Of a DNA stretch of 64,000 nt, positions 1-64,000 are shown piece by piece (position 1 is the first letter of the stretch; each line of letters opens with the position of its first letter). Under the pieces are notes generated by a model, which was not told the DNA's origin, ran no database searches, and saw only the letters and a list, made by a program, of their open reading frames with translations. Where the stretch lies: assembly GCA_963832055.1 (NCBI GenBank), contig CAWHST010000004.1, positions 454,409 through 518,408 of the forward strand. The letters run 5' to 3'. This stretch comes from an uncultured Gemmatimonadales bacterium. Lineage in GTDB: Bacteria; Gemmatimonadota; Gemmatimonadetes; Gemmatimonadales; GWC2-71-9. The position numbers and the translations under genes were made by a program.

Positions 1-937
1 GCGCCGCCGACAGGTGGTACTTCCCGGCGAGAAACCATCGCTCCACGTACGGGATTCCCAGCCAGATCGCGGTCGACCCCAGCGCCACGAGCAGGATGAC
101 GAGCCGGGTCTCGCGGGCGATCAGCCGCCGGCGCTCCAGCACGTCGGGCGCCGCGCGCAGCCGCGGCAGCAGCGAGTAGCCGACGCCCATCTGCAGCACC
201 CGGAAGAGAGACCCGACGATCGCCGCGAGTACGCCGTACGTCGCCAGGTCGTGCAGGGGGAGCAGGTGGGGGATCAGGAGGCGCTCCAGCTGGATCAGCA
301 GTAGTCCGGCCGCGCTGAGCCCCGCCATCGCGAATGCCTCGCTCCAGGGAATGGCTACGTCGCGCCGGGGCTTCGCGTGACGCTCGCGGAAGAGCAGCCA
401 CCATCCCGCCGACGCCATGACGACGAAGCCGGCCGTCCAGATCAGGAGTGGAGGCTCGGCACCCTGAGTCCCGCCAGCACGACCCAGGCGGCGGACAACA
501 GCAGGATGAGATTGGGGCTCTGGTTGAGTGCCAGCGAGATCCCGAACCGCTGCTCGCTCTGGAACTGCCCGCCGGCGACCATCAGCGCCCCGCCGGCAAT
601 CGTGGACACCAGGATCATCAGAGGTGACGGACGGCGAAGTCTCATAGCCGACCACGCCGACCGCGGCGAAGAGGAGACCCGCGGGTATGATCGTGCGCAG
701 GATGTGTCGGAGAAGCCGGGGCCCGGCCTCGAGCGGAAGCCGGTTCACTACGCCGTCCACGCCGGCCGGCGCGAGCGGATAGCCGACGTTCACCAGCGCC
801 ACCACGAGGGTGAAGAGCGCGTACGCGGTGGTGGTCAGCGATCGGGCCAACATCAGATTCGCGACGGCGAAGCCAGCCCCGGAGAGTCCCAGTACCGCGA
901 CGGTGCGGAGCGTGGGCGACCGCCACAGCCGCCTCAC
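1..937 (-). CDS. Wzx/PST-family polysaccharide flippase (partial, runs off left edge; interrupted by ~2 frameshifts)
   Basis: My minus-strand translation starts at GTG 935-937 (GTGA overlap with the upstream GT stop): MRRLWRSPTLRTVAVLGLSGAGFAVANLMLARSL... It continues in a second frame (track ORF 442..645, ...NLILLLSAAWVVLAG) and a third (...LIWTAGFVVMASAGWWLLF...LPRLRAAPDVLERRRLIARETRLVILLVALGSTAIWLGIPYVERWF). Multi-TM and flippase-like. Frame switches near ~650 and ~470. Confidence 0.6.
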   Translation of the reverse strand, partial: MRRLWRSPTLRTVAVLGLSGAGFAVANLMLARSLTTTAYALFTLVVALVNVGYPLAPAGVDGVVNRLPLEAGPRLLRHILRTIIPAGLLFAAVGVVGYETSPSVTSDDPGVHDCRRGADGRRRAVPERAAVRDLAGTQPEPQSHPAVVRRLGRAGGTQGAEPPLLIWTAGFVVMASAGWWLLFRERHAKPRRDVAIPWSEAFAMAGLSAAGLLLIQLERLLIPHLLPLHDLATYGVLAAIVGSLFRVLQMGVGYSLLPRLRAAPDVLERRRLIARETRLVILLVALGSTAIWLGIPYVERWFLAGKYHLSAA

Positions 938-2107
938 GCGGAGGGCTGCCGCACGCGGGCCTCCATCGTGGTGTAGAAGGCCGCCAGCTTGCGGCGCGCC
1001 GCCTGGGGAGTGTGCTCGCGCTGCACGTAAGCCTTGGCGCTGGTGGCGAGCCGGAGCCGCAGCTCGGGGTCGCGCAACAGCGTGGCGAGGCCCTGGCCGA
1101 AGGCGGCCGGCTCCGGATCCACCAGGTAGGCCACGCCGTCATCGAGCACCTGGGTATGGGTGCGGAGCCGGGTCGCCAGTACCGCCGATCCCGAGTCGAG
1201 GTAGGAGTAGATCTTCATCGGGGTGTTGAGTCCCTTAAGTCGGGGCGAGACCAGCACATCGGCTTGCTGGAGCAGCCCGGGCAGTAGGCCGATCGGCCGG
1301 GGTCCCATGAACACGACCGACGACGCCATTCCCAGCCGCTCGGTTCGCCCGCGATAGCGGGCGATGTCGTCATCCCGCCCGCCGACGATCAGGAGCTTTG
1401 CCTCGGGCACGGTGCTCAGCGTGTGACGGAAGCCCTCCAGGAGGAGATCGATGCCCTGATACGGCTCGAGATTGCCCACGTACATGGCGACCGGACCGCC
1501 GTCCGTTCCGGGAAGGGTGCGGCCGTCCCGGTTGCCGGTCACCTTCGGCGAGAAGCGTCGTGTCCTCCACCCGGCCGACCGGCTTCCCGGGGTCGTGTGC
1601 CTGGGCGATGTCCTCCAACGCCGCGCACACGGTCAGCACCCCGATGCTCCGCCGGATGGCCATCCCCTCCATGCGGCGGAATGCGGGAAACAGGAAGCCG
1701 AGCGACGGGTAGGTCTCGACCATCTGCTCCGCGAGGGAGGAATCCATGTCGTAGACGTAGGGGACGCCGGAGAGCGCTTGCATACCGCCGGCGATGAAGG
1801 CCGACTCCTCGACCGCGTGGACGAGATCGTATCTGGTGCGGCGCATCATGCCGAGGCAGGCGACCACCATCAGCAAGTCGGAAACGACCTTCTTGAAGGA
1901 GAATCCCGCCCGGATGTTGGTCAGGCCCGGAACCCGGAGCGTGCGGTGCAACTTGCAGTTGGCGATCTCGACCTCGGCGCCCTCGGAATAGGTGAGGACG
2001 TCCACCGAGTGTCCCCGCTCGCTCAGGAACTCCAGCACGCCCTTGACGGCGATCGGCGTGCCGCGGGCCTGATAGAACGGGTGCGGCGCGAGCAGCAGGA
2101 TCTTCAC
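934..2107 (-). CDS. GT-B glycosyltransferase (GT1/GT4 family), one apparent frameshift near ~1545
   Basis: ORF 1370..2107 supplies the N-terminal GT-B half (MKILLLAPHPFYQARGTPIAVKG...). ORF 934..1542 supplies the C-terminal half (VGNLEPYQGIDLLLEGF...LLIVGG...VLVSPR...). The two halves are contiguous only after a 1-nt correction. Confidence 0.85.
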
Positions 2108-3623
2108 GCCGGCCCCGCCCGCGCACCGAGGCTACCTCGGCGGCTCGCCGCCCTTCGTCCCAACCGAGCGCATCGCCGACGATCCGCGGCGGCCTGCTCG
2201 ACCGCCTCGTGGCCGGGCCCCGGAGGGTCACCCAGCTCGGTCCTGCGATGCACGACGTCACCCAAGGTCACCGCCATTTCCTCCCGGGCCGCGTGCAGGA
2301 TCCGCCGCGCCAGGGGAGGCCGGTCGCCTGGCGAGAGCTCCGCACCCACCAATGGGGTCTCGGCGGTGCGGCAGGCACGCGGTTGAAGACCCATGGAAGC
2401 TAGCACCAGAGTCACCACCTCCTGGGCCACCGCCCGCGCGGTGGTGTACTTCACCGCCTCCACGGTCAAAAGATTGGCGGGCCCGGACGCGGCCGGCCCG
2501 CTTATGCGGGGCCGCTCAGCCAGAGTGACGGAGGGTCCCGACTCCAGGCCTGCCTTGAGCGGAAGACGTCCCCACTGCCGCCCGACCACGTCGGCGCCGG
2601 AGAGCTCGAGCCCGGGACACGCCCGGTTGAACTCGGCGAGAAGCGTCTCGGCGCCTCGCTCCAGCGCCGGGCCGGGATCGCTGCTGTCGTCGGCCACGCC
2701 GTACCAGGTGCCGAGGAGGGTGCTACGCTCCTGCGGCGCCAGGAAAAGGAAGCGCCCACCCGATCCGCCCGGGTCCCCGTCGGAAGACGAGCTCGAGCGA
2801 AGACCGACGGCGAGGTCGGCCACCCGGCGTCCGATGACCAGGTTGAGGGCGAGGGCATGCCGCGGGATGCCGGGAGCGAAGCCGAGGCTCCTGCCGGCGC
2901 GGGCGGCCAGCGTCTCGGTCCACGGCCCCGCTGCGATCACGATCTGCCGGGCCCGCAGCTCGTGGCGCCGACCGGTGAGCCGGTCCACCAGGCCCACTGC
3001 GTGCACGGCGCCGCCTGAGACCTCGAATCCCTCCACCTCCGCGTGGTTGGCCACCTGAGCCCCGGCCCGACGCGGCGGAGACGACGAAGGCCAGGGTCAG
3101 GCGCTCGGGGTGCGTCATGCGCGCGTCGTACCAGAGTGCGCCGCCGCTCAAGCTGCCGGGGTCGAGGGCAGGGAAGAGCCGCAGGCACTCCGGCCGGGAG
3201 AGTAGGCGTCCCGCGGCGATGCGCCGGCGGGGATCGAGGTGGCGGTTCCGAGTGGGCGAAAGCAAGTGGGTGAGCGCGAGGCCGGCGCCGAAGGCCGCTC
3301 TGCCCGGCACGCCGGGCCCGCCCGGTAGGCACCAGCACCGGCAGCGGCTCGACCAGTCCCGGCGCGATACGCAGCAGCGCCGACCGCTCCCGGATGGATT
3401 CCCTCATCCTGGCGAGGTCACCGCGGGACAGGTAGCGGAGGCCGCCGTGCACGATCCGCAGGCTGTTGGCCGAGGTCGCCGCACCGAAGTCGTCCCGCTC
3501 CACCAGGGCCACCTTGAGTCCGCGGAGCGCCGCATCCCACGCGATGCAGGCGCCCTGGATGCCGCCCCCGATGACCAGAACGTCGTGCCTTATCCCGCCA
3601 AGCTGGTTCAGATCCCGCCGCAT
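2104..3623 (-). CDS. FAD-dependent oxidoreductase (GlpD/DAO-like), split over three frames
   Basis: The N-terminus has a dinucleotide-binding motif, DVLVIGGGIQGACIAWDAALRGLKVALVERDDF (ORF 2937..3623). The middle lies in ORF 2723..3310 and the C-terminal part in ORF 2104..3054 (...QIVIAAGPWTE...). Shifts near ~3320 and ~3060. The stop overlaps the next gene's start (2104/2107). Confidence 0.8.
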
Positions 3624-3650
3624 CGGCCCGACCGCCGCGCGCAGCCCCGC

Positions 3651-4637: not shown

Positions 4638-4638
4638 G

Positions 4639-5611
4639 TCAACGGACCTCCCAGGCTGTCGGAATCTCGTTGGCGCTTTCCCGCTCGCTGCTCAAGGCCA
4701 CCTCGGCTACCAGTCCCAGCATCAACAGGTAGAACGCGGCGCCGGCGCACAGCAGCGCGGCACCGGGAAAGACCAGGGCCTCGGCCTTGGACTGCTGGAA
4801 CTCCATCGCGGCCACCACGGCCATCGCCGCGAAGAGCAGTGCTCCGATCACCATCGGCACCGCCAGCGTGCCGAACCCGAGCAGCGGGCGCGAGCGGAAG
4901 GTGGTGATCATCTTGAGGGTGAGCAGGTCGGCCAGCACCTTCACCGTGCGTGAAATGCCGTACTTGCTCTCGCCGAACCGGCGGGCGTGATGGCGAACCG
5001 GCATCTCGGTGATCCGTGCGCCCACGCTCGCGCTGAGGGCCGGGATGAAGCGGTGCTGCTCCGCGTAGAGCGAGATCCGGTCGAGCAGCTCCCGGCGGTA
5101 GGCCTTGAGCGAGCAGCCGTTGTCCGTAATCTGTACCCCGGTCAGACGCCGGATGATCCGGTTCGCGACCCATGACGGCACCTTGCGCAAGAGAAACTTG
5201 TCCTGCCGCTGTTGCCGCCATCCGCAGACCAGGTCGTACCCCTCGTCGAGCTTGGCCAGGAGAGCCGGGATGTCACGCGGATCGTTCTGCAGGTCGCCGT
5301 CCAACGACACGATCACGCGTCCCCGGGCGTGATCGAACCCGGCCATCATGGCCGCGGTCTGGCCCACGTTTCGTCCCAAACCGAGTCCTCGAACCCTCGG
5401 GTCGCCTGCCGACGCGGCGGCCACTCGGGTCCAGGTGTCGTCCCGGCTCCCGTCGTCCACCAGGATGACCTCGAAGCTACCGGAATAGCCGGCGAGGCGC
5501 CTCGAGGATCCAGTCGACGAGAGGAGCCACGTTCTGAGACTCGTTGTACAACGGGGCGACCACCGACAGGTCGAGCTGGTCGGCCGGCGCCGTCGGGGCA
5601 ATCGAGGCCAT
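4639..5611 (-). CDS. GT2 glycosyltransferase (GtrB/DPM-synthase-like) with C-terminal TM helices; frameshift near ~5500
   Basis: The N-terminus MASIAPTAPADQLDLSVVAPLYNESQNVAPLVDWI lies in ORF 5477..5680. The rest is in ORF 4639..5649 (FEVILVDDGSRDDT...VSLDGDLQNDP...CGWRQQRQD...HRFIPAL...). The gene abuts the downstream GT2 (4637/4639). Confidence 0.85.
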
Positions 5612-11554: not shown

Positions 11555-13169
11555 GTGCACGCCCCGAACGCCGCCCTGCTGATCGATTTCGACAATGTCA
11601 CCCTTGGCATCCAGAAAGACCTGACCAAGGAGCTGCGCACCCTTCTCAACAGCGACATCATCAAGGGCAAAGTCGCCGTCCAACGCGCCTACGCCGACTG
11701 GCGTCGCTACCCGCAGTACATCGTTTCCCTCTCCGAGTCGTCGATCGATCTCATCTTCGCGCCCGCCTTCGGGTCCACCAAGAAGAATGCGACCGACATC
11801 CGCCTCGCCATCGACGCGATCGAGCTGGTGTTCACCCGGCCCGAGATCGGGACCTTCATCCTGCTCTCCGGCGACAGCGACTTCTCGACCATGGTGATCA
11901 AGCTCAAGGAGTACGGGAAATACGTCATCGGGGTCGGGATCCGGGAGTCGGCCAGCGATCTCCTGATTCAGAACTGCGACGAGTATTACTCGTACAACGA
12001 TCTCGCCGGTCTCACCAAGGAAGTGGACACTCCGTCCATCCAGCGCGATCCGTGGGAGCTCGCGGGGCAGGCCGTGGCGCAGATGGCCCGCAACGGCGAC
12101 GTGATGCGGTCGGACCGGCTGAAGCAGGTCATGCAGCAGATCGACCCGAACTTCGACGAGCGCAACGCCGGCTTCAACCGCTTCAGCAAGTTCGTGCTCG
12201 AGGCGGGACAGCGCGGCGTGGTGACGGTGACCAAGCTCGACAACGGGCAGTTCGAGGTGTCTCCGGGAGCGGTGGCCGCCGCCGCGCCCGCGGCGCTGCC
12301 GGCGCCCCGGTCGCGAGACGGTGAGACCGCGCGAGCGCGAGCCCGCGAGCCCCGCGAGGGCCGGGAGGATGGAGGCCGGGGAAGGCGCGGCCGGCGCGGT
12401 GGCCGCGGCCGCGGCGAGCGCCAGGCGAGCCCGGCCGACGAGTCGTCGGTGCGCGACGCGCCGTCGAGCCGGCCGAGCCCGACCGACGGCGCGCTGTCCC
12501 TCGCCCGCGCGTTCCAGCTCATGGCGCAGGCGCTGAGCGAGCTCCGCGGCCCGGTCACCCAGGAGGCGCTCCGCCTGCGCATGGCGGCGCTGCACGGGCG
12601 CGAGGATGCCCTGCTCGATCCGGCGCGCTTTCCCCGGCTGCTGCGCCAGGCCAACGATGCCGAGATCGCCGATGTGCGGAAGGTCGGCGACGACGACTAT
12701 GAGATCTCGGATCGTCGCGGTGCGGGAATGGCGCCTCCGTCACCCGCTTTACCCGCGGTATCCCCCGCCTCGGGACCAGCGGTGGAGCCGGCCGATGGCG
12801 CCGAGCCCGCCGAACCGGCCGCCGAGGTCCCGGCCGGCGCCCGGGAGAACGGCCAGCGGTTCGGCGTTCGCTTCCGGCGCGGCTCGCGTGGTGGATTGCG
12901 CGCGGGGGAAATTCCGCTCATCGGCGTGGTGCAGATGGACGTCGCGCCGGTCGAGGCTCTGCCGAGCCGAGATCGCCGAGCCGACCGAAGCAATCGAGCC
13001 AAAGCCAGCCCGTCCTCGGCGGGCGCCCAGGAAGAAGAAGGCCGCGACCGCCACGGCGGCCAAGGCAGACAAGCCGGCCAAGGCGGAGGCGTCGGGTGAA
13101 GACCCTGGCGCGGCTCCGGTGGCCACGGCCAAGCGAGGCCGGACCCGGGCCCGGAAGAAAGCGGAGTGA
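11555..13169 (+). CDS. NYN-domain (PIN-like RNase fold) protein with OST-HTH/LOTUS-like region and basic low-complexity tail; frameshift near ~12965
   Basis: N-terminus ALLIDFDNVTLG...VQRAYADW...DLIFAPAFGSTKKNATDIRLAIDAIEL...ILLSGDSDFSTMVIKLKEYGKYVIGVG is the limkain-b1-type NYN pattern. Helical segments follow, then an R/G/E-rich stretch. The frame of ORF 12606..13169 ends in a Lys/Ala-rich tail (...PRKKKAATATAAKADKPAKAE...KRGRTRARKKAE), and its stop forms a GTGA overlap with the next gene's start. Confidence 0.75.
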
Positions 13170-13951
13170 AGCGGCAACGACGGGCAGCGACGCTGCCCGT
13201 CGCGTTTTTCGACCGGCCCGCCGATGTCGTGGCGCGCGAGCTGTTGGGAGCGCTGGTGGTGTCACGGGCCGGTGGCGCCCGCACCAGCGCCCGGATCGTC
13301 GAGACCGAGGCCTACCTGGGCTACCGCGATCCGGCCTCCCACGGATACCTCCACCGCCGAAACGACCGCAACGCCGCGCTGTTCGGCCCGCCGGGCTCGT
13401 GGTACGTGTACTTGTCGTATGGAATCCACTGGTGCGCCAACCTCGTGTGCGGTGCGGAAGGAACGGCGGGCGCGGTCCTGTTGCGTGCGCTGGAGCCGGT
13501 GGAAGGCCTGGAGTGGATGCGGGAGCGAAGGGGCAGGGTGGACGACCGCGACCTTTGCTCGGGGCCGGGAAAGCTGTGCCAGGCGCTGGGTATCACCCGG
13601 GGCCTCGACGGCCGCATGATGCCGGACGCGGAGGTCGTCGTGATGCCGCCTTCGGTGGCCCTCCCGTTCCAGATCCTCACCACGCCGCGCATCGGCATCA
13701 CCAAGGCGGCCGATTGGCCGCTTCGGTTCGTGGTGGAGGGGAATCCGCACCTATCGGGGCGGGGCGGCGGGTGCGGGCCGGTCTTAGGCTCTCCAGCGGT
13801 CCGCCGGAGTGACGCAGCTAGAAAACGACGACGGGCAGCGCTCTCACGCTGCCCGTCGTTTCGTTGGTGGGGTGCCGCGCCGGCTACTTGTACCCGCCGG
13901 TCTTCACCGATTCGCGGGCGCCGCCGAGGCCGAACCGGAGGCCGCCGCTGA
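13166..13951 (+). CDS. DNA-3-methyladenine glycosylase (MPG/AAG family); 3' end probably over-extended
   Basis: LPVAFFDRPADVVARELLG...ARIVETEAYLG..DPASH......GPPGSWYVYLSYGIHWCANLV...VLLRALEP...GPGKLCQALGI...PRIGITKAADWPLRF is the family signature. The family normally ends soon after ...GNPHLS. The two other frames have stops at 13786-13788 and 13810-13812, just before a terminator hairpin at 13824. Confidence 0.85.
   Translation: MKRQRRAATLPVAFFDRPADVVARELLGALVVSRAGGARTSARIVETEAYLGYRDPASHGYLHRRNDRNAALFGPPGSWYVYLSYGIHWCANLVCGAEGTAGAVLLRALEPVEGLEWMRERRGRVDDRDLCSGPGKLCQALGITRGLDGRMMPDAEVVVMPPSVALPFQILTTPRIGITKAADWPLRFVVEGNPHLSGRGGGCGPVLGSPAVRRSDAARKRRRAALSRCPSFRWWGAAPATCTRRSSPIRGRRRGRTGGRR
13177..13209 (+). 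terminator. Intrinsic-terminator-like hairpin + T5 (palindrome family C, copy 1)
   Basis: ACGACGGGCAGCG A CGCTGCCCGTCG followed by CGTTTTT. It lies immediately after the NYN-gene stop (13169) and inside the first ~15 codons of the glycosylase ORF. Confidence 0.5.
13824..13865. terminator. Bidirectional terminator-like hairpin (palindrome family C, copy 2)
   Basis: AACGACGACGGGCAGCG CTCTCA CGCTGCCCGTCGTT, flanked by A-rich sequence on the left and T-rich sequence on the right. It lies between the convergent glycosylase and OMP genes. Confidence 0.5.
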
Positions 13952-14568
13952 AGGTGTGGGTCGGCCCGCTGAGCAGCCGGCCGAACGCGACCGGATTGCC
14001 GTCGGCATCGGAGACCGACGTCGTTGCCCGGGCTGGTGGTGATCTGATATTGGCCGAAGGCCATCAGCCGACCGAGCTGGAAGGTGATGCCGGCCAGGAA
14101 GGTGCCGAATCCGGTGCTGCCGAGCTCTTCGGCATCGCTCTGGAACGCGGTCGCGTTCTGCGGGGTCGGGCTCACCACGTGCATGATGCCGTAGCCGACG
14201 CCGAGGTAGGGCTGCGCGGCGGCCTTGATCGGGTACGCCATCAACACCGCGGAGTACTTCCGGATGTCGTTGAACGTCACCGGCTGGGTCCCGCTCAGGT
14301 CGCTGTAGGCGCTGGTCTCGTCCGAGCCCACGCCCTCTTCGACCGAGAGCAGCAGGCCGGTCCGCCGGGCGATGATCAGGGTCTGGCCCCCGAAGGTCGG
14401 AATGGCGGTCCGGTCCTGCGTCGGGGTATCGAAGAACATGACCCCGCCCTGGCCACCCACGTACCACTGGAAGTTGCTGTTGCCGGGCTCCTGCGCGGCG
14501 GCAGAGAGCGCCCCCAATGACAGTGCCAGCGCCGCGACCGGAATGCTGCGAGAGAGCATGCGCATCAC
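13884..14568 (-). CDS. Outer-membrane beta-barrel protein (OmpA-like barrel/porin-family), frameshift near ~14010
   Basis: Signal peptide MMRMLSRSIPVAALALSLGALSAAAQE, then alternating beta-strand pattern (WYVGGQGGVMFF..., YLGVGYGIMHV, FLAGITFQLG...FGQYQITT). After a 1-nt correction the C-terminus reads ...VSDADGNPVAFGRLLSGPTHTFSGGLRFGLGGARESVKTGGYK*, with the stop at 13884-13886. The remainder of track ORF 13321..14568 is read-through. Confidence 0.75.
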
Positions 14569-14823: not shown

Positions 14824-16023
14824 TCAGATCAGGCGGAGCTGCCTCCCCACTTTGGAGAAGGCGCCAAGTGCCTGATCCAGGTCGTCCCTGGTGTGTGAGG
14901 CGGAGATCTGGCAGCGGACCCGCGCCTGGCCCTGGGGCACGACCGGGTAGCCGAAGCCGGTGACGAAGACGCCCTCGGCGAGGAGGAGGTCGCTCATGCG
15001 TATGGCGGCCGAGGTCTCGCCCAGGATCACGGGAATGATCGGGGTCTCGCCGGGCAGGGGCTTGAAGCCGAGCTCCAGTAGCCGCTCGCGAAAGTAGCGC
15101 GCCTGCTGGCGCAGGTGGGTGACGCGCTCGGGATGGGCCTCGAGGTATTCGATGCTGGCGAGCGAGCTGGCCGCCACGGTGGGCGGAAGCGCGTTGGAGA
15201 AGAGCTGGGGCCGCGCGCGTTGCGTCAGGTAGTCGCAGGTCGCCGCCGACGCGGCGACGAACCCGCCGGCGGCGCCGCCCAGCGCCTTGCCCAGCGTCGA
15301 GGTGATGATGTCCACGTCGCCCAGCATGCCGAAGTGCTCCGCCGTTCCCCGGCCGTTCGCGCCCAGCACACCGGTGGCGTGGGAGTCGTCCACCACCAGC
15401 ACCGCCTGGTGCCGGCGGCAGAGCTGGAGCAGGTCGGGCAGCCGCGCGATCGCGCCCTCCATCGAGAACACCCCGTCGGTGATCACCATCCGCACCCGCC
15501 GGTCGCGCGCGGCCGCCAGCTTCTGTTCCAGGTCGGCGAGGTCCGAGTGCTTGTAGACCGCCGTCTGGCACTTGGTGATCGCCTTGGCGAGCCGGACCCC
15601 GTCGATGATGGACGCGTGGTTGAGCTGATCGCTGATCACGATGTCGTCCTCGCCCAGCAACGTGCCGGGCACCGCTTCGTTGGCGTTCCAGCAGCTCACG
15701 AAGCTGAGCGCGGCCGGCGTGCCCACCAGCCGAGCGCAGGCCGCCTCCAGCGCGCGATGGACGGTGAAGGTTCCGCAGATGAAGCGGACCGAGGCGGTGC
15801 CCGCGCCCCAGCGGTCGAGCGCGGCCTTGCCGGCCGCGACGACCTCCGGCTGGTTGCTCAGGCCCAGGTAGTTGTTGGAAGACAGGATGATGACGTCGCC
15901 GCGTCCCTCCATACGGACCCGCGGCGCCTGGGGGCTGTCGAGGAAGTTGAGCCTCTTGTAGACCCCATCGCGGATGAACTGCTCCAGCTCGCTCTCCAGC
16001 CGCTGTTCCAGCGGGTTGCTCAT
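14824..16023 (-). CDS. kbl: 2-amino-3-ketobutyrate CoA ligase (glycine C-acetyltransferase)
   Basis: MSNPLEQRLESELEQFIRDGVYKRLNFL...ILSSNNYLGL...ICGT...DQLNHASIIDG...DGVFSMEG...VDDSHATG...ITSTLGKALGG (PLP lysine context). It forms an ATGA overlap with tdh. Track ORF 14824..17172 over-extends upstream. Confidence 0.93.
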   Translation of the reverse strand: MSNPLEQRLESELEQFIRDGVYKRLNFLDSPQAPRVRMEGRGDVIILSSNNYLGLSNQPEVVAAGKAALDRWGAGTASVRFICGTFTVHRALEAACARLVGTPAALSFVSCWNANEAVPGTLLGEDDIVISDQLNHASIIDGVRLAKAITKCQTAVYKHSDLADLEQKLAAARDRRVRMVITDGVFSMEGAIARLPDLLQLCRRHQAVLVVDDSHATGVLGANGRGTAEHFGMLGDVDIITSTLGKALGGAAGGFVAASAATCDYLTQRARPQLFSNALPPTVAASSLASIEYLEAHPERVTHLRQQARYFRERLLELGFKPLPGETPIIPVILGETSAAIRMSDLLLAEGVFVTGFGYPVVPQGQARVRCQISASHTRDDLDQALGAFSKVGRQLRLI

Positions 16024-17060: not shown

Positions 17061-17122
17061 GGGGGTCCAGGAAGAAGTCGGGGGGAATATAGGAGAGGTC
17101 GGGTATCAGCCATCCATCGAGG

Positions 17123-39254: not shown

Positions 39255-45663
<6,409 letters not shown>

Positions 45664-48930: not shown

Positions 48931-49701
48931 CGTGCGGCCAGCGAGCGCAGCGCGGGTGGGGTGCCCGTTGTGAGCAAGCGGAGTCGCTGCCGGAGCTTGA
49001 GGACCCGGTCCTTCATCTTCATCGCCTGGCGCCGCACCCGGAGGCGGCGCGGGCATGGTGAATCGCTCGAACCGCGCCGGGCCGATGGTAGACGCCGTGG
49101 ACTGCTCGATCACGGGGAACGGGAAAATGCCGAGGCAGGCGACGCCGTGCTCCCAGGACCGGTCGAGCTCGTCGTCGAGCGGACGTCGGACCTCGCGGCA
49201 GTGGCGCACGAACAGCCGGGCGCCTGCCCGCGTCATGAGGTAGCCCTGGGTTCCCAGCGGGCGGTCCAGATACTCGATCAGGGTGCGCTGTTGTTCGACG
49301 GCATCGCGCAACACCACGCGGAACGCGCAGGGGCGCTTGGCGTAGAGTCTCAGGTAGGGAATGCCGGCCGCCTGAATGTCCACCGTCACCAGCTTCTCGA
49401 GAAACCCCCAGTCCACGATCGTGTCGTCCTCGAGAACCAGCATCTGCGGCGCCCCGGAGTCGAGGAACATCTCCCACGCGGCGTAGTGGCTCGAGTAGCA
49501 ACCCAGCTCGCCGGGGTACAGCGGCCTGCCCTTGGCGACGATCGCCTCGTCCGGATCGTGGGTGAGGCCGGGCGCCAGCTCCCGGTGCGCGTCGAACCAG
49601 GTCCACCCGATCGACGTCCCCCGCGCCCGCTCGGCGAACGACGCCCGCCGGTCGGACGCGTCGGGCAGGCTGATCACCACCACTTTCGTGTGACCGACCA
49701 C
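48931..49701 (-). CDS. Glycosyltransferase family 25-like domain protein (no stop before the in-frame flippase)
   Basis: MVGHTKVVVISLPDASDRRASFAERA...GRPLYPGELGCYSSHYAAWEMFL...MLVLEDD...GTQGYLMTRAGARLF is the GT25 pattern. It is followed by a P/G/A/D-rich linker that runs in frame into the flippase. Confidence 0.7.
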
Positions 49702-49707: not shown

Positions 49708-50944
49708 CTAGCTCGGCCGCACGCGCAGGCGCGATTCGGCCGCGGTCCGAAGCTCCGAGAGCAGCGTGAGCGCGCTCCGGGTCCAGGAAAAATCCGCCGC
49801 CCGGCGCAGTCCTCGGCTCCGCAGCTCCCCGGCGAGGCGGTCGTCGAGGCTGACCCGCTCCATGGCCGCCGCCAATCCGGCCACGTCGTCGGGATCCACC
49901 AGCAGGGCGGCGTCGCCGGCGATCTCGGGACATGCCGACGTCGTCGCGGTGATGACGGGGCAGCCGCACGCCATCGCCTCGACGATGGGAATGCCGAAGC
50001 TCTCGTAGCGCGAGGGGAACACCAGGGCGCGCGCCAGACTGTAGAGGGCGGGCATGTCGGTGAACTCCACGAACCCCGGCGTGTGCACCGAGGACGGCTC
50101 GGCGTGTTCGGCAATCGCGTCGGGCGTCAGGCGCTCCGCGATGCCGATCCCCAGGATCACGAGCGGCGGCACCGTCGCGCCCCCGGCGGCGGTCTGCCGC
50201 CGCATGCGACCGTACGCCTGCAATGCCGCCGCCACGTTTTTGCGCGGCGTGAGCGTCTTCCCGGAGGCCTGCCCCAGGATCTGGTGGCCCTTGACCACCA
50301 TCAACAGGAACGGCTCGGCCGGAAGCCGGTAGCGCGCCCGGACCGCGGCGAGCGCGGCCTGGTCCGTGATCGGCCGGAAGCTCTCGTCGGCGGAGGCGTA
50401 CACCGTGCGCAACTTGGAGCGCGGAACGCCCACGTAGCGGACCAGCTCGTCACCCAGCGTGTCGGAGTTGGTGAGCACCCGGACCGCCCGCCGGCAATAG
50501 AGCGGGATCATCAGCCGATTGTAGAGCCGATCCAGGCGTCCCGACCACCCCACGTAGAATTCCGGATGGCTCCAGTACTCCGTGCCGCGCTGCTGTACCA
50601 CCGTGGGGCAGGGCGGCGCCAGCGGGATGCTGAACTTGTGATGGAAGAGGACGTCGAGATTCTCCCGGCGCGCGGCCAGCGGGACCAGCACCTGGTCCCA
50701 GAGCAGCTTGCCCGGTTCCGGGCACCACGACCTCCCGCACGTTGGGCCGGTCGCGATAGCGTCCCGCCTGCGCGGCGTCGCTGTAGAAGGCGACGTACTC
50801 GTTCCACGGGTCCGATTGGAACAGTGCGTCGCACAGCTTGCGGATATAAATGCCCTGGCCATCGACGTCGTCGATGGCGCGGAGCATGAGCCCGACCCGC
50901 AGGCGCGCTTTGGATGACCCCCTGACGGCGGCATCGGGCGCCAT
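49708..50944 (-). CDS. GT-B glycosyltransferase (GT4 family); frameshift near ~50715
   Basis: N-terminus in ORF 50450..51049 (MAPDAAVRGSSKARLRVGLMLRAIDDVDGQGIYIRKL...). The rest is in ORF 49708..50958 (...LVFPSRYESFGIPIVEAMACGCPVITATTSACPEIAGDAALLVDP...). Confidence 0.85.
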
Positions 50945-52169: not shown

Positions 52170-52931
52170 CGGCGGCCGCGACTCAGGCTCGGGAGGATGC
52201 CGACGTCGAGTCGTCCTCCGAGCAATACGCGCGGCGCTTCGACGGTCCGGTCGGCCGATGGTTCGTCGATTCCCAGACCAGGATCACGCTCGAATGCCTC
52301 GCGGGACTACCGGCGGGGGCCACGATTCTCGACGTCGGGGGCGGCCACGCGCAGGTGGCGCCTCCACTGGTGGAGGCGGGCTTCCGGGTGACGGTCGTGG
52401 GCAGCGATCCCTCCTGCGGTGAGCGGCTCGCATCGCTCACCTCCACCGGCCGTTGCCGGTTCGACGTAGGGGACCTTCAGGCGCTGCCGTATGCGGCCGC
52501 TTCCTTCGACGCGGTGGTGTGCTATCGCCTGATCGCGCACAGCGTCGAACTGGCGGCATCTCATCGCCGAGCTGTGCCGGGTCGCCCGGCACCGGGTGAT
52601 CGTGGACTATCCCGCGCGCCGCAGCGTGAACGTCGCCTCGCAGGCCCTCTTCCGCTTCAAGCACTCCATCGAGCGGGGCACCACCCGCCCCTTCGCGCTC
52701 TACGGGCGCGGGGAGATCGCGCGGGCGTTCGAGCGGGCCGGGTTCGCGGTCGTTCGGGTCCGTCCGCAGTTTCTGTTTCCGATGGCGCTCTATCGCCTGG
52801 CGGGATCGGTGCGGCTGGCGCGCACGGCGGAAGGCTTCGCGCGAGCAATCGCCCTGACCGGCCTGCTCGGGTCCCCGGTGATCGCCCGGGCCGACCGGCG
52901 GCTGGGGCCCGGTGAATCCCCCCGCGCCTGA
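52166..52931 (+). CDS. Class I SAM-dependent methyltransferase; frameshift near ~52550
   Basis: ATGA overlap with the epimerase stop. ...ATILDVGGGHAQVAPPLVEAGFRVTVVGSD...FDAVVCYRLIAHSV lies in the frame of ORF 51599..52915. It continues with ...VIVDYPARRSVN...FALYGRGEIARAFERAGFAVV (ORF 52596..52931). Confidence 0.8.
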
Positions 52932-54960: not shown

Positions 54961-55644
54961 AGGCCTCGACGTCTTTCCGGAACAGCCGAGCCACGAACTC
55001 TCTCGACTCGTCGTCGTAGTACTGGGTGTAATGCCCGAAGGTGTGTTTCCTCTCCCGGCTCCAGAGCGCCCGGCGGAGCTGCTTGCGAAGCTCTCGAAAG
55101 GAGTCGGGCCGCGCCTGCTCCAGCGACCGGTTCACCCTGGGCAGGCGGCGTCGGCGGGATGCCGAGCGCGGGCGCACACCTGGTCGAAGTCGGCCTGGAG
55201 GCTCTCGAATCTCCCCACGAAGTCCACCAGCAGCTTCCCCGCCTCGTCGTGCAGGAATTCATACTGCGGGATGACGTGCGAGTAGGTATCGGTCCAGCCG
55301 GGCGCCGGGAGGTGCTTGAAGAGGTAGGTCTTGAAATCGATCTTGACCGGATACCCGCGGTACTTGTACTCCGAGACGATTCGGTCCCACGGGTTTCGCA
55401 CGAAGGAGAACTTGAAGTACGAGGCGAACTGCTCCGCCGTCAGATGTCCCCGGGCGACGTACTCCTCGGCCTTGAGATGCTCCAGTCGGGGCGGGCCGAG
55501 CCTGGGGTCCTCGTTGCCGCCCAGCAGCAGGGGCGCTCGATTTTTCCAGGTCAGTCCTACCAGCCGTAGAAAGACGTCCTCGATGCTCATCCCCGCGGTC
55601 TTCGGGATGTGGACGAACAGGCAGCGGTATTCGCCGCAGATCAT
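54908..55644 (-). CDS. Sulfotransferase family protein (Sulfotransfer_2-like); frameshift near ~55160
   Basis: MICGEYRCLFVHIPKTAGMSIEDVF...FKFSFVRNPWDRIVSEY...IPQYEFL...VGRFESLQADF (ORF 55132..55644), continuing in ORF 54908..55177 (...YYDDESREFVARLFRKDVEAFNYSF). The 3' end overlaps the convergent GT2 gene by ~50 nt. Confidence 0.75.
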
Positions 55645-57833: not shown

Positions 57834-58346
57834 ATGGCTACCCAAACCCGACCCCCGATTGCACGACGCCGCGCGCCGCGCCTGCTCCCTGCGATGCCCA
57901 GCCCCACTGCCCCCTCACGAGATGGACTCACCGTGCAGGAGACGGCGGAGCGCACCGGCTTGAGCGAACATACGCTGCGCTACTACGAGCGGGCCGGCCT
58001 TCTGACCGCCGTGCGCCGTGACGGCTCGAGCGGTCACCGGCGCTACTCGGCCGACGACGTGGCCCGAATCAGCACCCTCGCATGTCTCCGCGCGACCGGG
58101 ATGCCCCTCGAGCAGATGCGCCGCTACTTCACACTGGCGGCCCGGGGGCGGAGCGCCGCTCACGAGCTCCGCGCCCTCCTGGAGGAACAGGAAGGCGCGC
58201 TCGAGGAGCGCATGCAGGCCATGCAGCGGCACCTGGACTACGTACGTCGAAAGATCGACTACTGGAGGGCGCTCGAGGCAGGGAAGGACGCCGTCGCACG
58301 ACGGATCGCCGACGAGCTTGCCTGCCAGACCCGAACCACGACCTGA
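57834..58346 (+). CDS. MerR-family transcriptional regulator
   Basis: LTVQETAERTGLSEHTLRYYERAGLLTAVRRDGSSGHRRYSADDVARISTLACLRATGMPLEQMRRY, followed by a coiled-coil dimerisation helix. The start is set at ATG 57834 (GGAAGGA upstream), and the track ORF starts at 57798. Confidence 0.88.
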   Translation: MATQTRPPIARRRAPRLLPAMPSPTAPSRDGLTVQETAERTGLSEHTLRYYERAGLLTAVRRDGSSGHRRYSADDVARISTLACLRATGMPLEQMRRYFTLAARGRSAAHELRALLEEQEGALEERMQAMQRHLDYVRRKIDYWRALEAGKDAVARRIADELACQTRTTT

Positions 58347-58361
58347 ACCCAAGGAGTTTCC

Positions 58362-59462
58362 GTGACACATACCCATGACGCACCCGCGGCCGGCACCGCG
58401 ACCCTGGCCCGGGGCCTTCCGACCCGAGGCTATGCCGCCGCGAGCGCCCGCTCGCCGCTGGCGCCGTTCGAGTTCGAGCGGCGGGCGCCCGGCCCGAAGG
58501 ACGTCCACATCGACATCCTCTTCTGCGGCGTCTGCCACTCCGACCTCCACCAGGCGCGGGACGAATGGGGCGGGTCCATGTTCCCCATGGTACCCGGGCA
58601 CGAGATCATCGGGCGGGTGAAGCAGGTCGGCGCCGAGGTCACCCGCTTCACCGCCGGCGACCTGGTCGGCGTCGGCTGCATGGTGGACTCCTGCCGCCAC
58701 TGCGCCGAGTGCCGCGAAGGGCTGGAGCAGTTCTGCCAGAACACGCTCACCCTCACGTACAACAGCCCCGATCCCATCCTGGGCGGTTCGACATACGGCG
58801 GCTACTCGAACCAGATCGTGGTGGACCAGGATTTCGTGCTGCGGGTGTCGGAGAAGCTCGATCCGGCCGCCGCGGCCCCGCTGCTCTGCGCCGGGATCAC
58901 GACGTACTCGCCGCTCCGCCACTGGCGGGTCGGCCCCGGTCAGCGGGTCGGCGTGGTCGGCCTGGGAGGGCTCGGCCACATGGGCGTCAAGCTCGCCCGG
59001 GCGATGGGCGCGGATGTGTCGCTCTTCACGACCTCTCCTGGCAAGGCGGACGATGCCCGGCGGCTCGGCGCCGACGAGGTGATCGTCTCCCGGAATGCGG
59101 AGGAGATGAAGCGCCACCGCCGCCGGTTCGATTTCATCCTCGACACCGTGGCTGCGCCGCACGACCTCGATGCCTATCTCACGCTGCTCAAGCGGGACGG
59201 CACGCTCTGCCTGGTCGGCGCGCCGGACCAGCCCCACCCGTCTCCGACGGCATTCAACCTGATTCTCGCGCGGCGACAGCTGGCCGGCTCCGCCATCGGG
59301 GGCATCAAGGAGACCCAGGAGATGCTGGATTTCTGCGCCGAGCGGGGGATCGTCTCGGACGTCGAGGTGATCCCGATGGAGCGGATCAACCAGGCGTACG
59401 AGCGGATGCTCAAGGGCGACGTGAAGTATCGATTCGTGATCGACCTGGCGACGCTCGCCTAG
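58362..59462 (+). CDS. NAD(P)-dependent Zn alcohol dehydrogenase (cinnamyl-ADH/YahK-like MDR)
   Basis: ...ILFCGVCHSDLHQARDEWGGSMFPMVPGHEIIGRV...CRHCAECREGLEQFC...VGVVGLGGLGHMGVKLA... Confidence 0.92.
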   Translation: MTHTHDAPAAGTATLARGLPTRGYAAASARSPLAPFEFERRAPGPKDVHIDILFCGVCHSDLHQARDEWGGSMFPMVPGHEIIGRVKQVGAEVTRFTAGDLVGVGCMVDSCRHCAECREGLEQFCQNTLTLTYNSPDPILGGSTYGGYSNQIVVDQDFVLRVSEKLDPAAAAPLLCAGITTYSPLRHWRVGPGQRVGVVGLGGLGHMGVKLARAMGADVSLFTTSPGKADDARRLGADEVIVSRNAEEMKRHRRRFDFILDTVAAPHDLDAYLTLLKRDGTLCLVGAPDQPHPSPTAFNLILARRQLAGSAIGGIKETQEMLDFCAERGIVSDVEVIPMERINQAYERMLKGDVKYRFVIDLATLA

Positions 59463-59491
59463 GTCCAAGGCGGCGGATCGAATATGGGAAA

Positions 59492-59525
59492 AGCGACGCC
59501 CAGGGTCCGGACCCTGGGCGTCGCT
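59492..59525. terminator. Perfect 34-nt palindrome (bidirectional terminator-like)
   Basis: AGCGACGCCCAGGGTCC|GGACCCTGGGCGTCGCT lies between the ADH stop (59462) and the inferred end of the convergent DUF1877 gene. Confidence 0.6.
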
Positions 59526-59545
59526 ACCCCGCAGCCAGTGCTGGA

Positions 59546-60152
59546 TTACGGAGATAGCCACGAGCAGACCGAATCCTCTGCCGGCAACGACGGACACGGT
59601 CTCTCTCAGGCGTCCGACATCCTCGAGGAGGTGGCCCAAAAATTCCTCGCTCCAGGACCCGGGATAGATCTCCAGCCGGGTCATCTCGACGGAGTTCGCC
59701 CTCGCCCGCACCTCGTCGTCGCCCAGCCGCATGAGCGCGTCCGCGATGCGACGGGTGTCAGCGCTGTTGTGGGTCAGCAGCGGAGGCTCGCCGTCCTGAA
59801 GCTCCAACTCCCGTCCACCACCCATCAGGAAGTTCAGCGGCGGCTCGCCCTCCTCCGACGTCCCGGTCAGCAGATAGTGTAGCCCGTGCCAGGACTTCTC
59901 GAAGTCGCCGAGCCGGTCCAGATCGCCCTCTCCTGGGGCGAGCTCCAGCGGCGGGGGGACTGGCGGCGGCTCCGCCTTCGCTCCCCGAAAGAGCCGTGCG
60001 AAGAGGCCGGGCCGCGGCTGCAGATCGGCGCGAGCCTCCGCCTCCCGCTCGGGTCGCTCAGGGTCCATCACCCGCCAGGCGAGTGGGGGGTCGGCGTGCA
60101 GCCGCTCGATGGTGGCGTCGCTCAGTGCGTAGATCGCTAGGTAGATGCCCAC
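59546..60152 (-). CDS. DUF1877 (YfbM-like) protein; 3' end inferred
   Basis: MGIYLAIYALSDATIERLHADPPL...FEKSWHGLHYLLTG...EIYPGSWSEEFL...GFGLLVAIS. Track ORF 57915..60152 has no in-frame stop and runs antisense through the ADH and MerR genes. A TAA at 59546-59548 is reached with a 1-nt shift next to ...VAIS, just before the palindrome. Confidence 0.6.
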
Positions 60153-60722: not shown

Positions 60723-62224
60723 TTACGGGCCGACGGTTACCATCTTCGCGACCGAAGGGACACCCGCGCCATTGATCAGGAACAGCATGTACGGTCCGGG
60801 CGGCGCCAAGGCGCCCCTCTCCGGGGCCACGCTGGTGAGGGTGCGTGGAGTTGGTCGCCTTCACGGCTAGAGGAAAGAGGAGCTGGCTCTGGTTGAACCC
60901 ATGGGTGACCGAGGACAGCCGGATCAAGGTGGCCCGGCTGATGGACCCCGCGTTCGGCGTCTGGATCGTGAACGACTGTCGGTAGGAGAGGCGCGACGGC
61001 GCCGAGGTGATGCTCGGCCGGGGGGCAGGGCTGCCATCGGCCTTGAACAGGTAGGGCGGGGTGAACACTTGCGCCGAGAGCTCGCTGTTGCGCAAAGGCG
61101 ATCCCACCCCCTTCGCCGCTCCCGGTCGAGAGCACCCTGCCGTTGGGCAACAGGATCGCCGACGAGTGGTAGGTCCGGTTGCGGCTCTCCGAGGCCATGG
61201 TGGTCCAGGACTCGGTCTTCGGGTTCCAGAGCTCAGCGGCGCGAACGGCGGCTGCCTGGTTGTTGAAGCCGGCCCCCCTGGTTCCGCCTGTCACCAGCAC
61301 ACTGCCGTCGGCCAGGATGGTGGCGTTCAACTGGCGGCGCGGGAATGCCATCGGCGGCACGGTGCGCCAGGCAGGGGCGCTCTGGTTGAGATCGATCACC
61401 TCCGCCGAGGCCGTAGGTGGAAAGAGAGTGTCGCGCGCGAGGACACTGTCGACGCCGCCGCCTACGTAGAGGATCTTCCCGGGTGCATACATCACCGCCG
61501 ATCCAAGCTTCCTGCCTACGACCTCCCGCTTGTCCACCGGACTCCATTGACCGGTCCCGGTGACGTCCAGATAGGCGGAGGTCGGTGTGAAGCCGGCGAG
61601 GAACACCTTGCCGTTCGGCGCGACGAACATCGCCGGATAGAAGGGATTGGCAATGGCCAGCGGGGCCGTCGTCAGCCGGCGCCATCCGCTGCCGGATCGT
61701 ACTTCGGGGATCCTGACGACCGCCCTGGCTGTGTCGTGGCCCGACATGACCAGAACGTCGCCGTTGGGCAGGGTGGTGGCAGTCGGGTAATAGCGGCCCT
61801 GGGCCATCGAGGCGGTGGCGCTCCACGTCTTGGTCGAGGGGTCGAAGATCGTGGCGTAGCGCAGGCCTCGGGTGCCCGGGCTGGTTCCCCCCATGACCAG
61901 AAGCCGGCCATCGGAGAGGAAGGTGTGACCCGTGCAGTAGATCCTGAACGGCTTCGGGGCCGCCGGAGTGAAGCCGGCACTCGCGCTCCAGAGGTAGGCC
62001 CCCTTCTGGTCACCCCACAGCAGCACTTTGCCGGTTCGCAGCAGGTGCACGTGCACCGCGACTGACGGCGTCGTGAACACCGGCGCCCAGCGCCCCGTCG
62101 TGGCTGCGGTGCTCGCGGCGACTGAGGTCGAGGGCTCGGTGACGTCAGGTGCGTCCTGACACGCGTAGATGACCAGCAATCCGAGTCCGAGCAGGGCTAA
62201 AGTCAGCAGTGCCAGCGGCTTCAT
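60723..62224 (-). CDS. Glyoxal/galactose-oxidase-like protein (Kelch beta-propeller + DUF1929-like C-terminal domain), lipoprotein; two frameshifts (~61085, ~60860)
   Basis: MKPLALLTLALLGLGLLVIYAC..., then Kelch-like blades (LLWGD..., YCTGHTFLSDGRLLVMGG, YYPTATTLPNGDVLVMSG, ...MYAPGKILYVGG, ...LADGSVLVTGG, YHSSAILLPNGRVLSTGSG). Next comes ORF 60715..61107 (AQVFTPPYLFKADGSPAPRPSITSAP...ATLIRLSSVTHGFNQSQ). After correction the end reads ...PGPYMLFLINGAGVPSVAKMVTVGP*. Confidence 0.8.
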
Positions 62225-63338: not shown

Positions 63339-63356
63339 AGCCCGGACATCCGGGCT
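63339..63356. terminator. Short hairpin directly after the hydrolase stop
   Basis: AGCCCGG ACAT CCGGGCT lies right after the TAA at 63336-63338. There is no downstream T-tract on the plus strand; the A-run upstream belongs to the coding end. Confidence 0.35.
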
Positions 63357-63460
63357 GCGGGAAACCTCGAGATGGGGCCATTGACCACAGGGCAGCTTTT
63401 CAGCCTCTAGCGCGCCGCTGAGAAAGGCCCTAGGCTAAACAACCCAAATCAATCAGCCCT

Positions 63461-63838
63461 ATGTCCACGCTTCTCGTGATTGATGACGAACCCGTAGTAC
63501 GTAAGCTGGCCTGCCAAGCCCTCCGGCAGGCCGGTTATGTCTGCCTTGAGGCCGATTCCGCCTTGGCGGCGCTGGAGCAGCTCCAGTCAGATCCGCAGCG
63601 GCTCGACGGCATGATCGTAGACATCAGGCTTCCGGATATGAGCGGGCTGAATCTCGTCCGACTGGCGCGCATCCATCGGCCTGGAACGCCGGCCCTCTTC
63701 ATTTCTGGCTATGCCCAGCCTGTTGCAGAGGAGCCTGAACTCCAGCAGCTTTTACAAGCCTTCCTGCCCAAGCCATTCACACCTGATCAGCTCTTAGCGG
63801 CTGTCCGCGAATTGCTACCCGCACCGCAGTCAGCCTGA
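63461..63838 (+). CDS. Single-domain response regulator (CheY-like receiver)
   Basis: MSTLLVIDDEPVVRKLACQAL...GMIVDIRLPDMSGLNLV...LFISGY...LPKPF. Intact 125-aa ORF. Confidence 0.88.
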   Translation: MSTLLVIDDEPVVRKLACQALRQAGYVCLEADSALAALEQLQSDPQRLDGMIVDIRLPDMSGLNLVRLARIHRPGTPALFISGYAQPVAEEPELQQLLQAFLPKPFTPDQLLAAVRELLPAPQSA

Positions 63839-64000
63839 GCCTCCAAATAGCGGCGAGGGGGTGGCTGTCGAGCTACCGGATTCACAGATGCTGGCGACTC
63901 GTCGGGATGTATCCCCCGGTCTCAGGGCCAAAGCGAATGTCAGGAGCAGACCGCCTAGGAGTATGGCGCCCACGATGGATCGGGACATAGGTCGATTCTC

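Follow-up and report, generated by a model that had tools for sequence, protein, structure and literature searches.

Almost exclusively +1 frame breaks in a Gemmatimonadales metagenome-assembled genome: a very probable consensus-error artefact

Introduction

Residual indel errors are reportedly found in long-read assemblies, the commonly described nanopore error being a deletion in longer homopolymers. Decaying genomes, such as those of Mycobacterium leprae and recent endosymbionts, keep their essential genes intact, with common nonsense mutations and deletions, downstream drift and a falling coding density; in addition, a deletional bias is reported for bacterial pseudogenes. Programmed +1 frameshifting on the ribosome, exemplified by prfB/RF2, uses single sites that relatives share and that come with a defined motif. 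For long-read contigs, 6 frameshifts per kb have been reported, a figure that falls to 1.2 per kb with short-read polishing, and CheckM is reported to do badly on data of this kind (Arumugam et al. 2019, Microbiome 7:61, PMC6469205).

The window analysed here, the whole stretch of 64,000 nucleotides, belongs to a metagenome-assembled genome (MAG) of a Gemmatimonadales soil bacterium comprising 3.98 Mb in 6 contigs, with 70% G+C. Its frame breaks resemble those of long-read-only (meta)genome assemblies in three respects, including (i) a density of about one single-base break per kb, in essential and accessory genes alike, (ii) a CheckM-type completeness that is depressed despite near-complete contiguity, and (iii) full-length proteins that are recovered by frameshift-aware alignment. 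Unlike the commonly described nanopore error, the breaks are almost purely insertions, involve runs of at most 3 bases, avoid runs of 4 or more and follow GC in their density. The MAG shares with decaying genomes the many frameshifted genes that are still recognizably similar to intact orthologues, but essential genes are broken, nonsense mutations and drift are absent, and the coding density is normal. With prfB/RF2 it shares a +1 shift in otherwise continuous coding sequence, but here the sites number in the thousands, are without a conserved counterpart in any of the relatives and come with no motif. On the evidence of the sequence, the breaks are almost certainly a consensus-error artefact and not pseudogenization and, as an artefact, would carry no biological significance.

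Location of the frame breaks

The reference set comprised true-frame ORFs from the syntenic DNA of 12 same-genus genomes, aligned to the window with tblastn and with a purpose-written frameshift-aware protein-to-DNA aligner, and the GC3 phase and a codon-model Viterbi scan provided homology-free checks. A simple filter of GC3>0.82 with greedy tiling of the tblastn hits admitted wrong-frame and antisense ORFs and lost sites; in the final procedure its place is taken by a stricter codon-position filter and the frameshift-aware aligner. The verified set comprises 24 single-base insertions and one deletion, spread over 18 genes, each missing from the loci of the relatives (up to 13 loci). Of 23 sites, 21 show a GC3 phase shift of exactly +1, a result that does not depend on homology, and the Viterbi scan finds 17 of the 25 verified breaks, with 17 of its 18 insertion calls in the window verified.

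Several candidates were discarded. Two 'deletions' called by the Viterbi scan, at 12695 and 39328, receive no support from homologues, and the junctions at 26722 and 14602 lie upstream of the start codons of rho and of gene 13890-14571, respectively, so that neither breaks a gene. Conversely, two genes that plain tblastn presents as unbroken are revealed by frameshift-aware alignment to carry a compensated insertion/deletion pair (gene 2-964) and an N-terminal +1 (the GT2 gene).

An earlier note on this DNA had listed 26 break positions and proposed a frameshift-aware alignment as a check. This alignment confirms real frame breaks at 23 of them, each within ~30 nt, including ~470 (a deletion), ~650, ~1545, ~3060, ~3320, ~5500, ~12965, ~14010, ~18005, ~19210, ~30640, ~30755, ~32315, ~32700, ~34175, ~34310, ~42846, ~48235, ~50715, ~52550, ~55160, ~60860 and ~61085. 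Two more, ~13780 and ~59545, are plausible though tentative, and a break at ~60700 is not supported, as the homologue aligns through the last residue at 60726, directly followed by TAA. The breaks were also described as evenly spread, which is only roughly so in the window; nevertheless, 7 gaps are shorter than 400 nt, against ~3.5 expected (p=0.035), and stretches of 7-11 kb are clean.

Broken genes of the window

On the minus strand, gene 2-964 encodes a conserved membrane protein with no Pfam match, in which a single-base insertion at 621..626, found by both Viterbi scan and alignment, displaces the frame and a single-base deletion at 466..480 restores it. The 50 codons enclosed by the two events, from 622 to 473, agree with the homologue of relative G004 only in the shifted frame, which the assembled ORF does not read. 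Single-base insertions on the same strand also affect the GT4 glycosyltransferase gene 937-2599 (1549..1550), the FAD-dependent oxidoreductase (DAO) gene 2188-3638, twice (3066..3071 and 3320..3325), and the GT2 glycosyltransferase gene 4642-~5610, ~35 codons into the gene (5496..5498), where four relatives agree.

The plus-strand gene 11522-13166, coding for an NYN-domain protein, carries a single-base insertion at 12964..12972, before a Lys/Arg-rich tail. A possible insertion at 13742..13785 (plus strand) concerns the C-terminus of a 3-methyladenine-glycosylase-like (Mpg-like) gene, the ORF of which runs 61 codons past the end of its homologues, the tails of the relatives being themselves different. 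On the minus strand, a single-base insertion at 14020..14034 breaks the conserved hypothetical gene 13890-14571, with seven loci in support, and two others, at 18004..18011 (context GCCCGGGC) and 19216..19221, break the FdhA-like molybdopterin oxidoreductase gene 17281-20249, the first being a net +1 against 13 of 13 loci. Amino acid identity to relatives is equal before and after each break, as in the FdhA-like gene (82/82/81%), and GC3 in the shifted frame after the breaks is 0.72-1.0, with undiminished codon bias.

Four further genes carry six single-base insertions, including (i) the DUF4350 gene ~30400-31612, twice (30635..30647 and 30741..30752, plus strand), (ii) the MoxR AAA+ ATPase gene 31612-32593, with CC where the relatives have C (32318..32321, plus strand), (iii) the DUF58 gene ~32590-33910, ~40 codons into the gene (32693..32699, plus strand), and (iv) the response-regulator/HD-GYP gene 33948-35002, twice (34167..34171, with 10 loci in support, and 34305..34312, minus strand). 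The DUF58 ORF of the window, in the shifted frame, codes for 398 aa, compared with 437-440 aa in almost every homologue cluster among the 120 listed. All four genes are intact in a short-read (k141) contig of 86-90% DNA identity, where they encode DUF4350 of 402 aa, MoxR of 327 aa, DUF58 of 439 aa and the response-regulator/HD-GYP protein of 352 aa. A second contig, L234, shows just two gaps against the window over 1.7 kb, both of them at the extra bases.

The plus-strand gene 39201-45660, which encodes a HAMP-repeat/GAF hybrid histidine kinase of ~2,150 aa, is split by a single-base insertion at 42845..42846 in a context without any run, GGC[G/C]CAAG, supported by six loci with 84-98% amino acid identity on either side. 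Downstream, the minus strand comprises single-base insertions in the Polysacc_synt_3 polysaccharide-biosynthesis gene 47358-~49000 (48230..48235), for which G004 is the sole relative, in the GT25 glycosyltransferase gene 48930-49698, ~40 codons before its end (49043..49055), a site that the earlier list omitted, and in the GT4 glycosyltransferase gene 49738-50953 (50713..50722), with six loci in support. On the plus strand, the SAM methyltransferase gene 52178-52907 has an insertion at 52546..52547, again without a run (GT[C/G]GAA). The minus-strand sulfotransferase gene 54911-55644, with G004 as the only relative, carries two insertions, at 55144..55146 and, 22 nt upstream in the reading direction, at 55166..55168, so that the single break formerly placed at ~55160 is really a pair netting +2.

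A probable frame break at 59533..59560 (minus strand) falls in the last codons of the DUF1877 gene 59553-60152, where both the Pfam profile and a single homologue of 43% identity end; the ORF continues for ~545 codons more, antisense through the next gene. Finally, the galactose-oxidase-like Kelch gene 60726-62224, on the minus strand, carries single-base insertions at 60843..60845 and 61087..61093.

In the coding parts of the window, 25 frameshifts stand against zero nonsense codons; all 32 stops within strong HSPs are located either ahead of a start or in the frame of another gene, which bears out the earlier reading that the correct frames hold no premature stop. At no site does any relative have the extra base, including the contigs that are 86-90% identical in DNA. 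A Rho-anchored metagenome scan for same-species DNA reached 88% nucleotide identity at best, and a search with the DUF58 protein 96% amino acid and 90% nucleotide identity; neither yielded sequence of the same species or an independent assembly of the same strain. An Rfam search of the 64,000 nt gave no matches.

Genome-wide distribution and error signature

The codon-model scan of the whole MAG predicts ~4,270 shifts, comprising 3,421 insertions and 850 deletions (10.7 per 10 kb), compared to 22 insertions and 15 deletions with the same model in the 12 relatives, over 564 kb (0.66 per 10 kb), a 16-fold difference in rate, with a same-genus genome of 3 contigs showing only 0.34 calls per 10 kb. 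A predicted shift is present in 53% of the MAG genes of at least 300 nt. Essential genes are affected as well: rpoB has one break and rpoC three, all of them +1, with pieces 83-95% identical in amino acids to relative G007, and the scan independently placed all four. Judged from rpoB and rpoC, essential single-copy genes are broken at the same rate as others. The verified spectrum of the window and these two genes amounts to 28 insertions and 1 deletion; the errors, earlier described as indels, are single-base as stated, but nearly all +1 insertions instead of a mixture.

The MAG has an estimated completeness of 62% and a contamination of 2.4%, whereas the same-genus genomes, of 2.7-4.5 Mb, reach a completeness of 70-97%. 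This low marker-gene value contrasts with the high contiguity and the full size of the genome, the MAG matching its intact relatives in size and having a coding density in the normal range (79-85%). The figure of 62% understates a MAG that is probably near-complete.

A coincidence of the breaks with homopolymers, suggested earlier as a check, does not hold. Of the 23 sites scanned, roughly half require no run, and the longest run involved measures 3 bases, against a background in which 46% of window bases belong to runs of at least 2; across the genome, runs of at least 4 are scarcer near calls (7.8% of calls) than at background positions (11.2%), so that the nanopore-type concentration in homopolymers is absent. 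The strongest 5-mer enrichment at calls, that of CGGGC/GCCCG, does not exceed about twofold and accounts for 12% of calls. The inserted base is G or C in at least 17 of the 23 sites, with no excess over the 69% G+C composition. Along the contigs, call density varies about tenfold, with 0-36 calls per 10 kb and strong over-dispersion (variance/mean 6.3), with long clean stretches, and it correlates with local GC (Spearman 0.59); the window itself is among the cleanest 7% of the genome.

Origin of the extra bases

The extra bases appear to stem from base-calling or from the building of the consensus, and not from the organism itself. The source would be a highly contiguous but poorly polished long-read MAG, with spurious single extra bases in its consensus by the thousand. 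Any one of these, when inside a gene, would move the reading frame by +1, and since at 70% G+C wrong frames seldom hold stops, broken genes would appear as long overlapping ORFs, not as truncated ones. The error process seems to depend on the sequence, with a density that rises with GC and an approximately twofold enrichment at CGGGC/GCCCG, and to be distinct from homopolymer compression.

In one version of the artefact explanation, the inserted bases would come mainly from the collapse of several co-existing strains into one consensus, and not from raw-read noise at low coverage. The over-dispersion of the calls, with its long clean stretches, does suggest some influence of the local read pile-up; nevertheless, strain collapse should yield substitutions and mixed indels, not ~96% insertions, and the GC correlation and mild motif point to a sequence-dependent bias of base-calling or consensus, which makes this variant unlikely. 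It is very improbable that the +1 bases reside in the DNA of the lineage and are bypassed by genome-wide recoding, or that the 25 breaks include a small number of genuine, recent pseudogenes concealed by the errors.

Genuine indels throughout, the product of massive recent pseudogenization in, for example, a newly host-restricted or dying lineage, are scarcely credible, even though the breaks are truly present in the deposited sequence. With four breaks in rpoB and rpoC and 53% of genes shifted, genuine decay would leave no viable cell, and the absence of nonsense mutations beside 25 frameshifts also argues against it. The ratio of 28 insertions to 1 deletion is opposite to the deletional bias reportedly typical of bacterial pseudogenes, codon bias and conservation are not lost downstream of the breaks, the coding density is normal and the genome is as large as those of intact relatives; in short, neither sparing of essential genes, nor mixed lesions with a deletional bias, nor drift is found. 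The breaks in rpoB and rpoC, the proportion of shifted genes, the excess of insertions and the completeness of 62% all support the preference of the earlier note for assembly errors, a reading drawn from sequence data.

A lineage-wide +1 recoding of real extra bases, by ribosomal +1 frameshifting, quadruplet decoding or RNA-level base removal, would account for the near-exclusive +1 events and the perfectly coding downstream frames, but has a negligible probability, as a search of the +1 sites for a shared codon, slippery motif or four-base word found none (contexts as heterogeneous as GGG[C]TCC, GC[G]CAAG, GT[C]GAA, ACC[G]CTG and GGA[A]CC), the top 5-mer is enriched merely twofold, no relative carries the extra base at any of the sites, the 3-contig congener is nearly free of calls, and the tenfold variation in density fits read support and not a decoding rule.

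Consequences for annotation

With consensus error as the preferred explanation, the signature, near-pure +1, non-homopolymeric, GC-dense and mildly enriched in CGGGC, may be useful to polishers of high-GC long-read MAGs. The MAG is a species representative, yet ordinary gene callers cannot read more than half of its genes. Its ORF tracks hold chimeras of in-frame and out-of-frame sequence of up to 2,100 codons, and other findings from it, such as unusual inserted domains, genes in pieces, 'missing' partners or new small ORFs, should first be re-read with frameshift-aware alignment.

Among the long ORFs that had been regarded as chimeras, 39165..45569, 47608..49701 and 57915..60152 do result from frame breaks. 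On the other hand, 14824..17172 and 21719..23938 each comprise a real gene with a stop-free upstream extension over its neighbour (ADH-like and thiE antisense, respectively), and these extensions are an effect of high GC, not of a frameshift.

Detection and verification of frame breaks

The assembly comprises 3,985,066 bp in 6 contigs with 69-70% G+C, the window lying at C4:454,409-518,408, and its nearest public relatives in a Rho-anchored search are Gemmatimonadales MAGs. The DNA is so GC-rich that wrong frames remain open over hundreds of codons, and the 64-kb window displays 147 mutually overlapping ORFs of at least 150 aa. As a result, ORFs are not cut short at a frame break, and detection relies on homology or codon statistics. 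To that end, syntenic DNA was taken from 12 same-genus genomes, including G004 (3 contigs), which is colinear with most of the window. Those stop-to-stop ORFs of the relatives whose codon-position pattern was that of true coding sequence were used as tblastn queries against the window, followed by our own frameshift-aware protein-to-DNA aligner, and each site was narrowed by deleting single bases in turn and re-scoring against up to four relatives.

Frameshift-aware alignment verified 24 single-base insertions and one deletion in the 64-kb window. The insertions are located at 621-626, 1549, 3066-71, 3320-25, 5496-98, 12964-72, 14020-34, 18004-11, 19216-21, 30635-47, 30741-52, 32318-21, 32693-99, 34167-71, 34305-12, 42845-46, 48230-35, 49043-55, 50713-22, 52546-47, 55144-46, 55166-68, 60843-45, and 61087-93, and the deletion at 466-480. 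The earlier note had listed 26 break positions from the sequence alone, 23 of which are confirmed by alignment to the relatives' intact ORFs; a C-terminal break is plausible, though thinly supported, at both ~13780 and ~59545, and the one at ~60700 finds no support, a galactose-oxidase-like homologue aligning through its final residue at 60726, directly followed by TAA. The break at ~49050 is absent from that list, and the one placed at ~55160 is a pair of insertions separated by 22 nt. These breaks are also borne out by two homology-free checks: (i) the highest-GC codon position shifts by exactly +1 at 21 of 23 sites, and (ii) a six-frame Viterbi codon model, with this genome as training set, finds 17 of the 25 verified sites, with a single unverified call among its 18 insertion calls in the window.

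Nature of the lesions

Wherever a break is well supported, the window carries one base more than the ORF of the relatives, a net +1 seen in up to 13 loci for a single site. As had been claimed, premature stops are lacking: the coding parts of the window contain zero nonsense codons, and each of the 32 stops within strong alignments is either upstream of a real start or in the frame of a neighbouring gene. Conservation is equal across the breaks, with 82, 82, and 81% identity for the pieces of the FdhA-like gene and 85 and 84% before and after the break in the kinase gene, and GC3 in the shifted frame is 0.72-1.0. In the conserved membrane-protein gene 2-964, the insertion (622) and the deletion (473) flank 50 codons that match the homologue only in a frame unused by the assembled, still-open ORF.

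About half of the sites fit the lengthening of a run from one to two or two to three bases, the longest run being three, and the remaining sites lie outside any run, such as GGC[G/C]CAAG at 42846 and GT[C/G]GAA at 52547. Since 46% of the window bases occur in runs of at least two, this association represents no enrichment. The proposed homopolymer link is further weakened by the genome-wide insertion calls of the codon model, around which homopolymers of at least four bases are depleted (7.8% vs 11.2%). CGGGC/GCCCG is about twofold (12% vs 6%) and GCGC 1.35-fold enriched near these calls; the scan places calls only within about 10-20 nt, so that such k-mer and run enrichments are indicative.

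Broken and intact genes

The identities of the 18 broken genes were established by Pfam on the relatives' intact ORFs. They comprise the membrane protein with no Pfam match, four glycosyltransferases (two GT4, one GT2, and one GT25), an FAD oxidoreductase, an NYN-domain protein, a conserved hypothetical protein, an FdhA-like molybdoenzyme, the neighbouring DUF4350, MoxR, and DUF58 genes, a response regulator with an HD-GYP domain, a HAMP-repeat/GAF hybrid histidine kinase of ~2,150 aa, a polysaccharide-biosynthesis membrane protein, a methyltransferase, a sulfotransferase, and a galactose-oxidase-like Kelch protein. Rho is unbroken, as are about 35 further genes of the window.

The FdhA-like gene (17281-20249) contains two assembly insertions (18004-11 and 19216-21). 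Once these frame changes are taken into account, the proteins of the relatives, 982-996 aa in length, align with it colinearly at ~81%, and an 'extra segment' deduced from the assembled ORF needs checking again in the shifted frames. The gene is missing from G004, where window 17100-20370 is absent. The hybrid kinase (39201-45660), a region with an AT skew of 0.25, displays about 11 tandem 276-nt (92-aa) HAMP/HAMP_2 units followed by GAF, HisKA, HATPase_c, and three receiver domains. Amino acid identity to G004 is 92-98% in the final repeats and the C-terminal portion, with flanking DNA at ~80%.

Comparison with independent sequences

When used as a query, the DUF58 fragment disclosed 2,981 homologues. 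Of the 120 clusters listed, nearly all are 437-440 aa, compared to 398 aa for the window ORF in that frame. Two contigs encoding close homologues were retrieved for DNA comparison. A short-read (k141) contig, with 86-90% DNA identity and the same gene order as the window, encodes intact DUF4350 (402 aa), MoxR (327 aa), DUF58 (439 aa), and HD-GYP response regulator (352 aa) proteins, and, apart from the window's six extra bases, the alignment shows no uncompensated gap within these genes. The second contig (89.7% identity) shows exactly two gaps in 1,721 nt, the extra C of the window at 32318 and 32698. The metagenome and protein collections searched contained no same-species sequence. In the related metagenome contig L153 (Ga0209751_10058019), the HD-GYP response regulator gene adjoins rho, whereas 7 kb separate them in the window, a local rearrangement between species.

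Genome-wide pattern

Across the whole genome, the codon-model scan returned 3,421 insertion and 850 deletion calls (10.7 per 10 kb), and 53% of the 3,077 predicted genes of at least 300 nt carry a called shift. The same scan over 564 kb of the 12 relatives gave 22 insertions and 15 deletions (0.66 per 10 kb), with 0.34 calls per 10 kb in G004, the other highly contiguous assembly. Judged in the window, insertion calls have a sensitivity of 68% and a precision of about 94%, so that the genome probably contains 3,000-5,000 insertions in all; little reliance can be placed on the deletion calls, as none of three in the window was verified and close insertion pairs mimic a deletion. The breaks had been described as evenly spread; genome-wide, their density is very uneven: a 10-kb bin holds between 0 and 36 calls, variance/mean is 6.3, and density correlates with local GC (Spearman 0.59). 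The window has 21 calls, where the median for 64 kb is 59, which places it among the cleanest 7%. The 20-kb bins of contig C4 hold 3 to 62 predicted shifts, in blocks of 100-200 kb.

In the rpoB/rpoC region (C4:846,500-855,600), the single-copy rpoB is split over two frames and rpoC over four, all four shifts being +1 and independently located by the scan, and each piece shows 83-95% amino acid identity to the intact proteins of the same-genus genome G007. Broken RNA polymerase β and β′ subunits, together with frameshifts in over half of the genes, are not compatible with life.

Origin of the frame breaks

Judged from sequence, consensus error is by far the best explanation and very probably the correct one, because deletions and nonsense mutations are nearly absent, the downstream sequence is undecayed, and a contiguous, full-size genome shows low completeness (62.06%, contamination 2.42%; 70-97% for the 12 same-genus genomes of 2.7-4.5 Mb). 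The earlier preference for assembly error over gene decay thus holds, given the mutation spectrum, the intact downstream sequence, the low completeness, and the broken rpoB and rpoC. In long-read metagenome contigs, short-read polishing lowers the frameshift rate from 6 to 1.2 per kb, and such contigs mislead CheckM (PMC6469205); the published rates bracket the ~1.1 per kb of this genome. Unlike the classical homopolymer-deletion signature, the errors here are insertion-only and GC-linked. Part of the patchiness may come from a strain-mixture consensus, which is itself a form of this artefact. Genuine mass pseudogenisation is highly improbable, being at odds with the broken essential genes, the mutation spectrum, and the lack of sequence drift. 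Equally improbable is +1 recoding, as the sites share no common motif and are conserved in no relative.

Other elements in the window

A near-perfect 93-nt hairpin (fold energy -76 kcal/mol) occurs at 17123-17215 and ~25384-25466, between convergently ending or tandem genes. Built of GTGAACG/GTGAACA heptamers and AT-richer than the genome, it is found at about 73 places, with copies on each of the 6 contigs and in same-genus relatives as well, and resembles a family of REP/terminator-like intergenic repeats belonging to this Gemmatimonadales genus. The minus-strand ORF 21719-23938 (739 codons) is real only in its last ~390 codons, comprising PUA_3 and SAM methyltransferase domains (RlmI-like); its first ~350 codons are antisense to thiE (22967-23860, plus strand; TMP-TENI, E = 1e-41), over which the long antisense frame is also open in G004 and G007.
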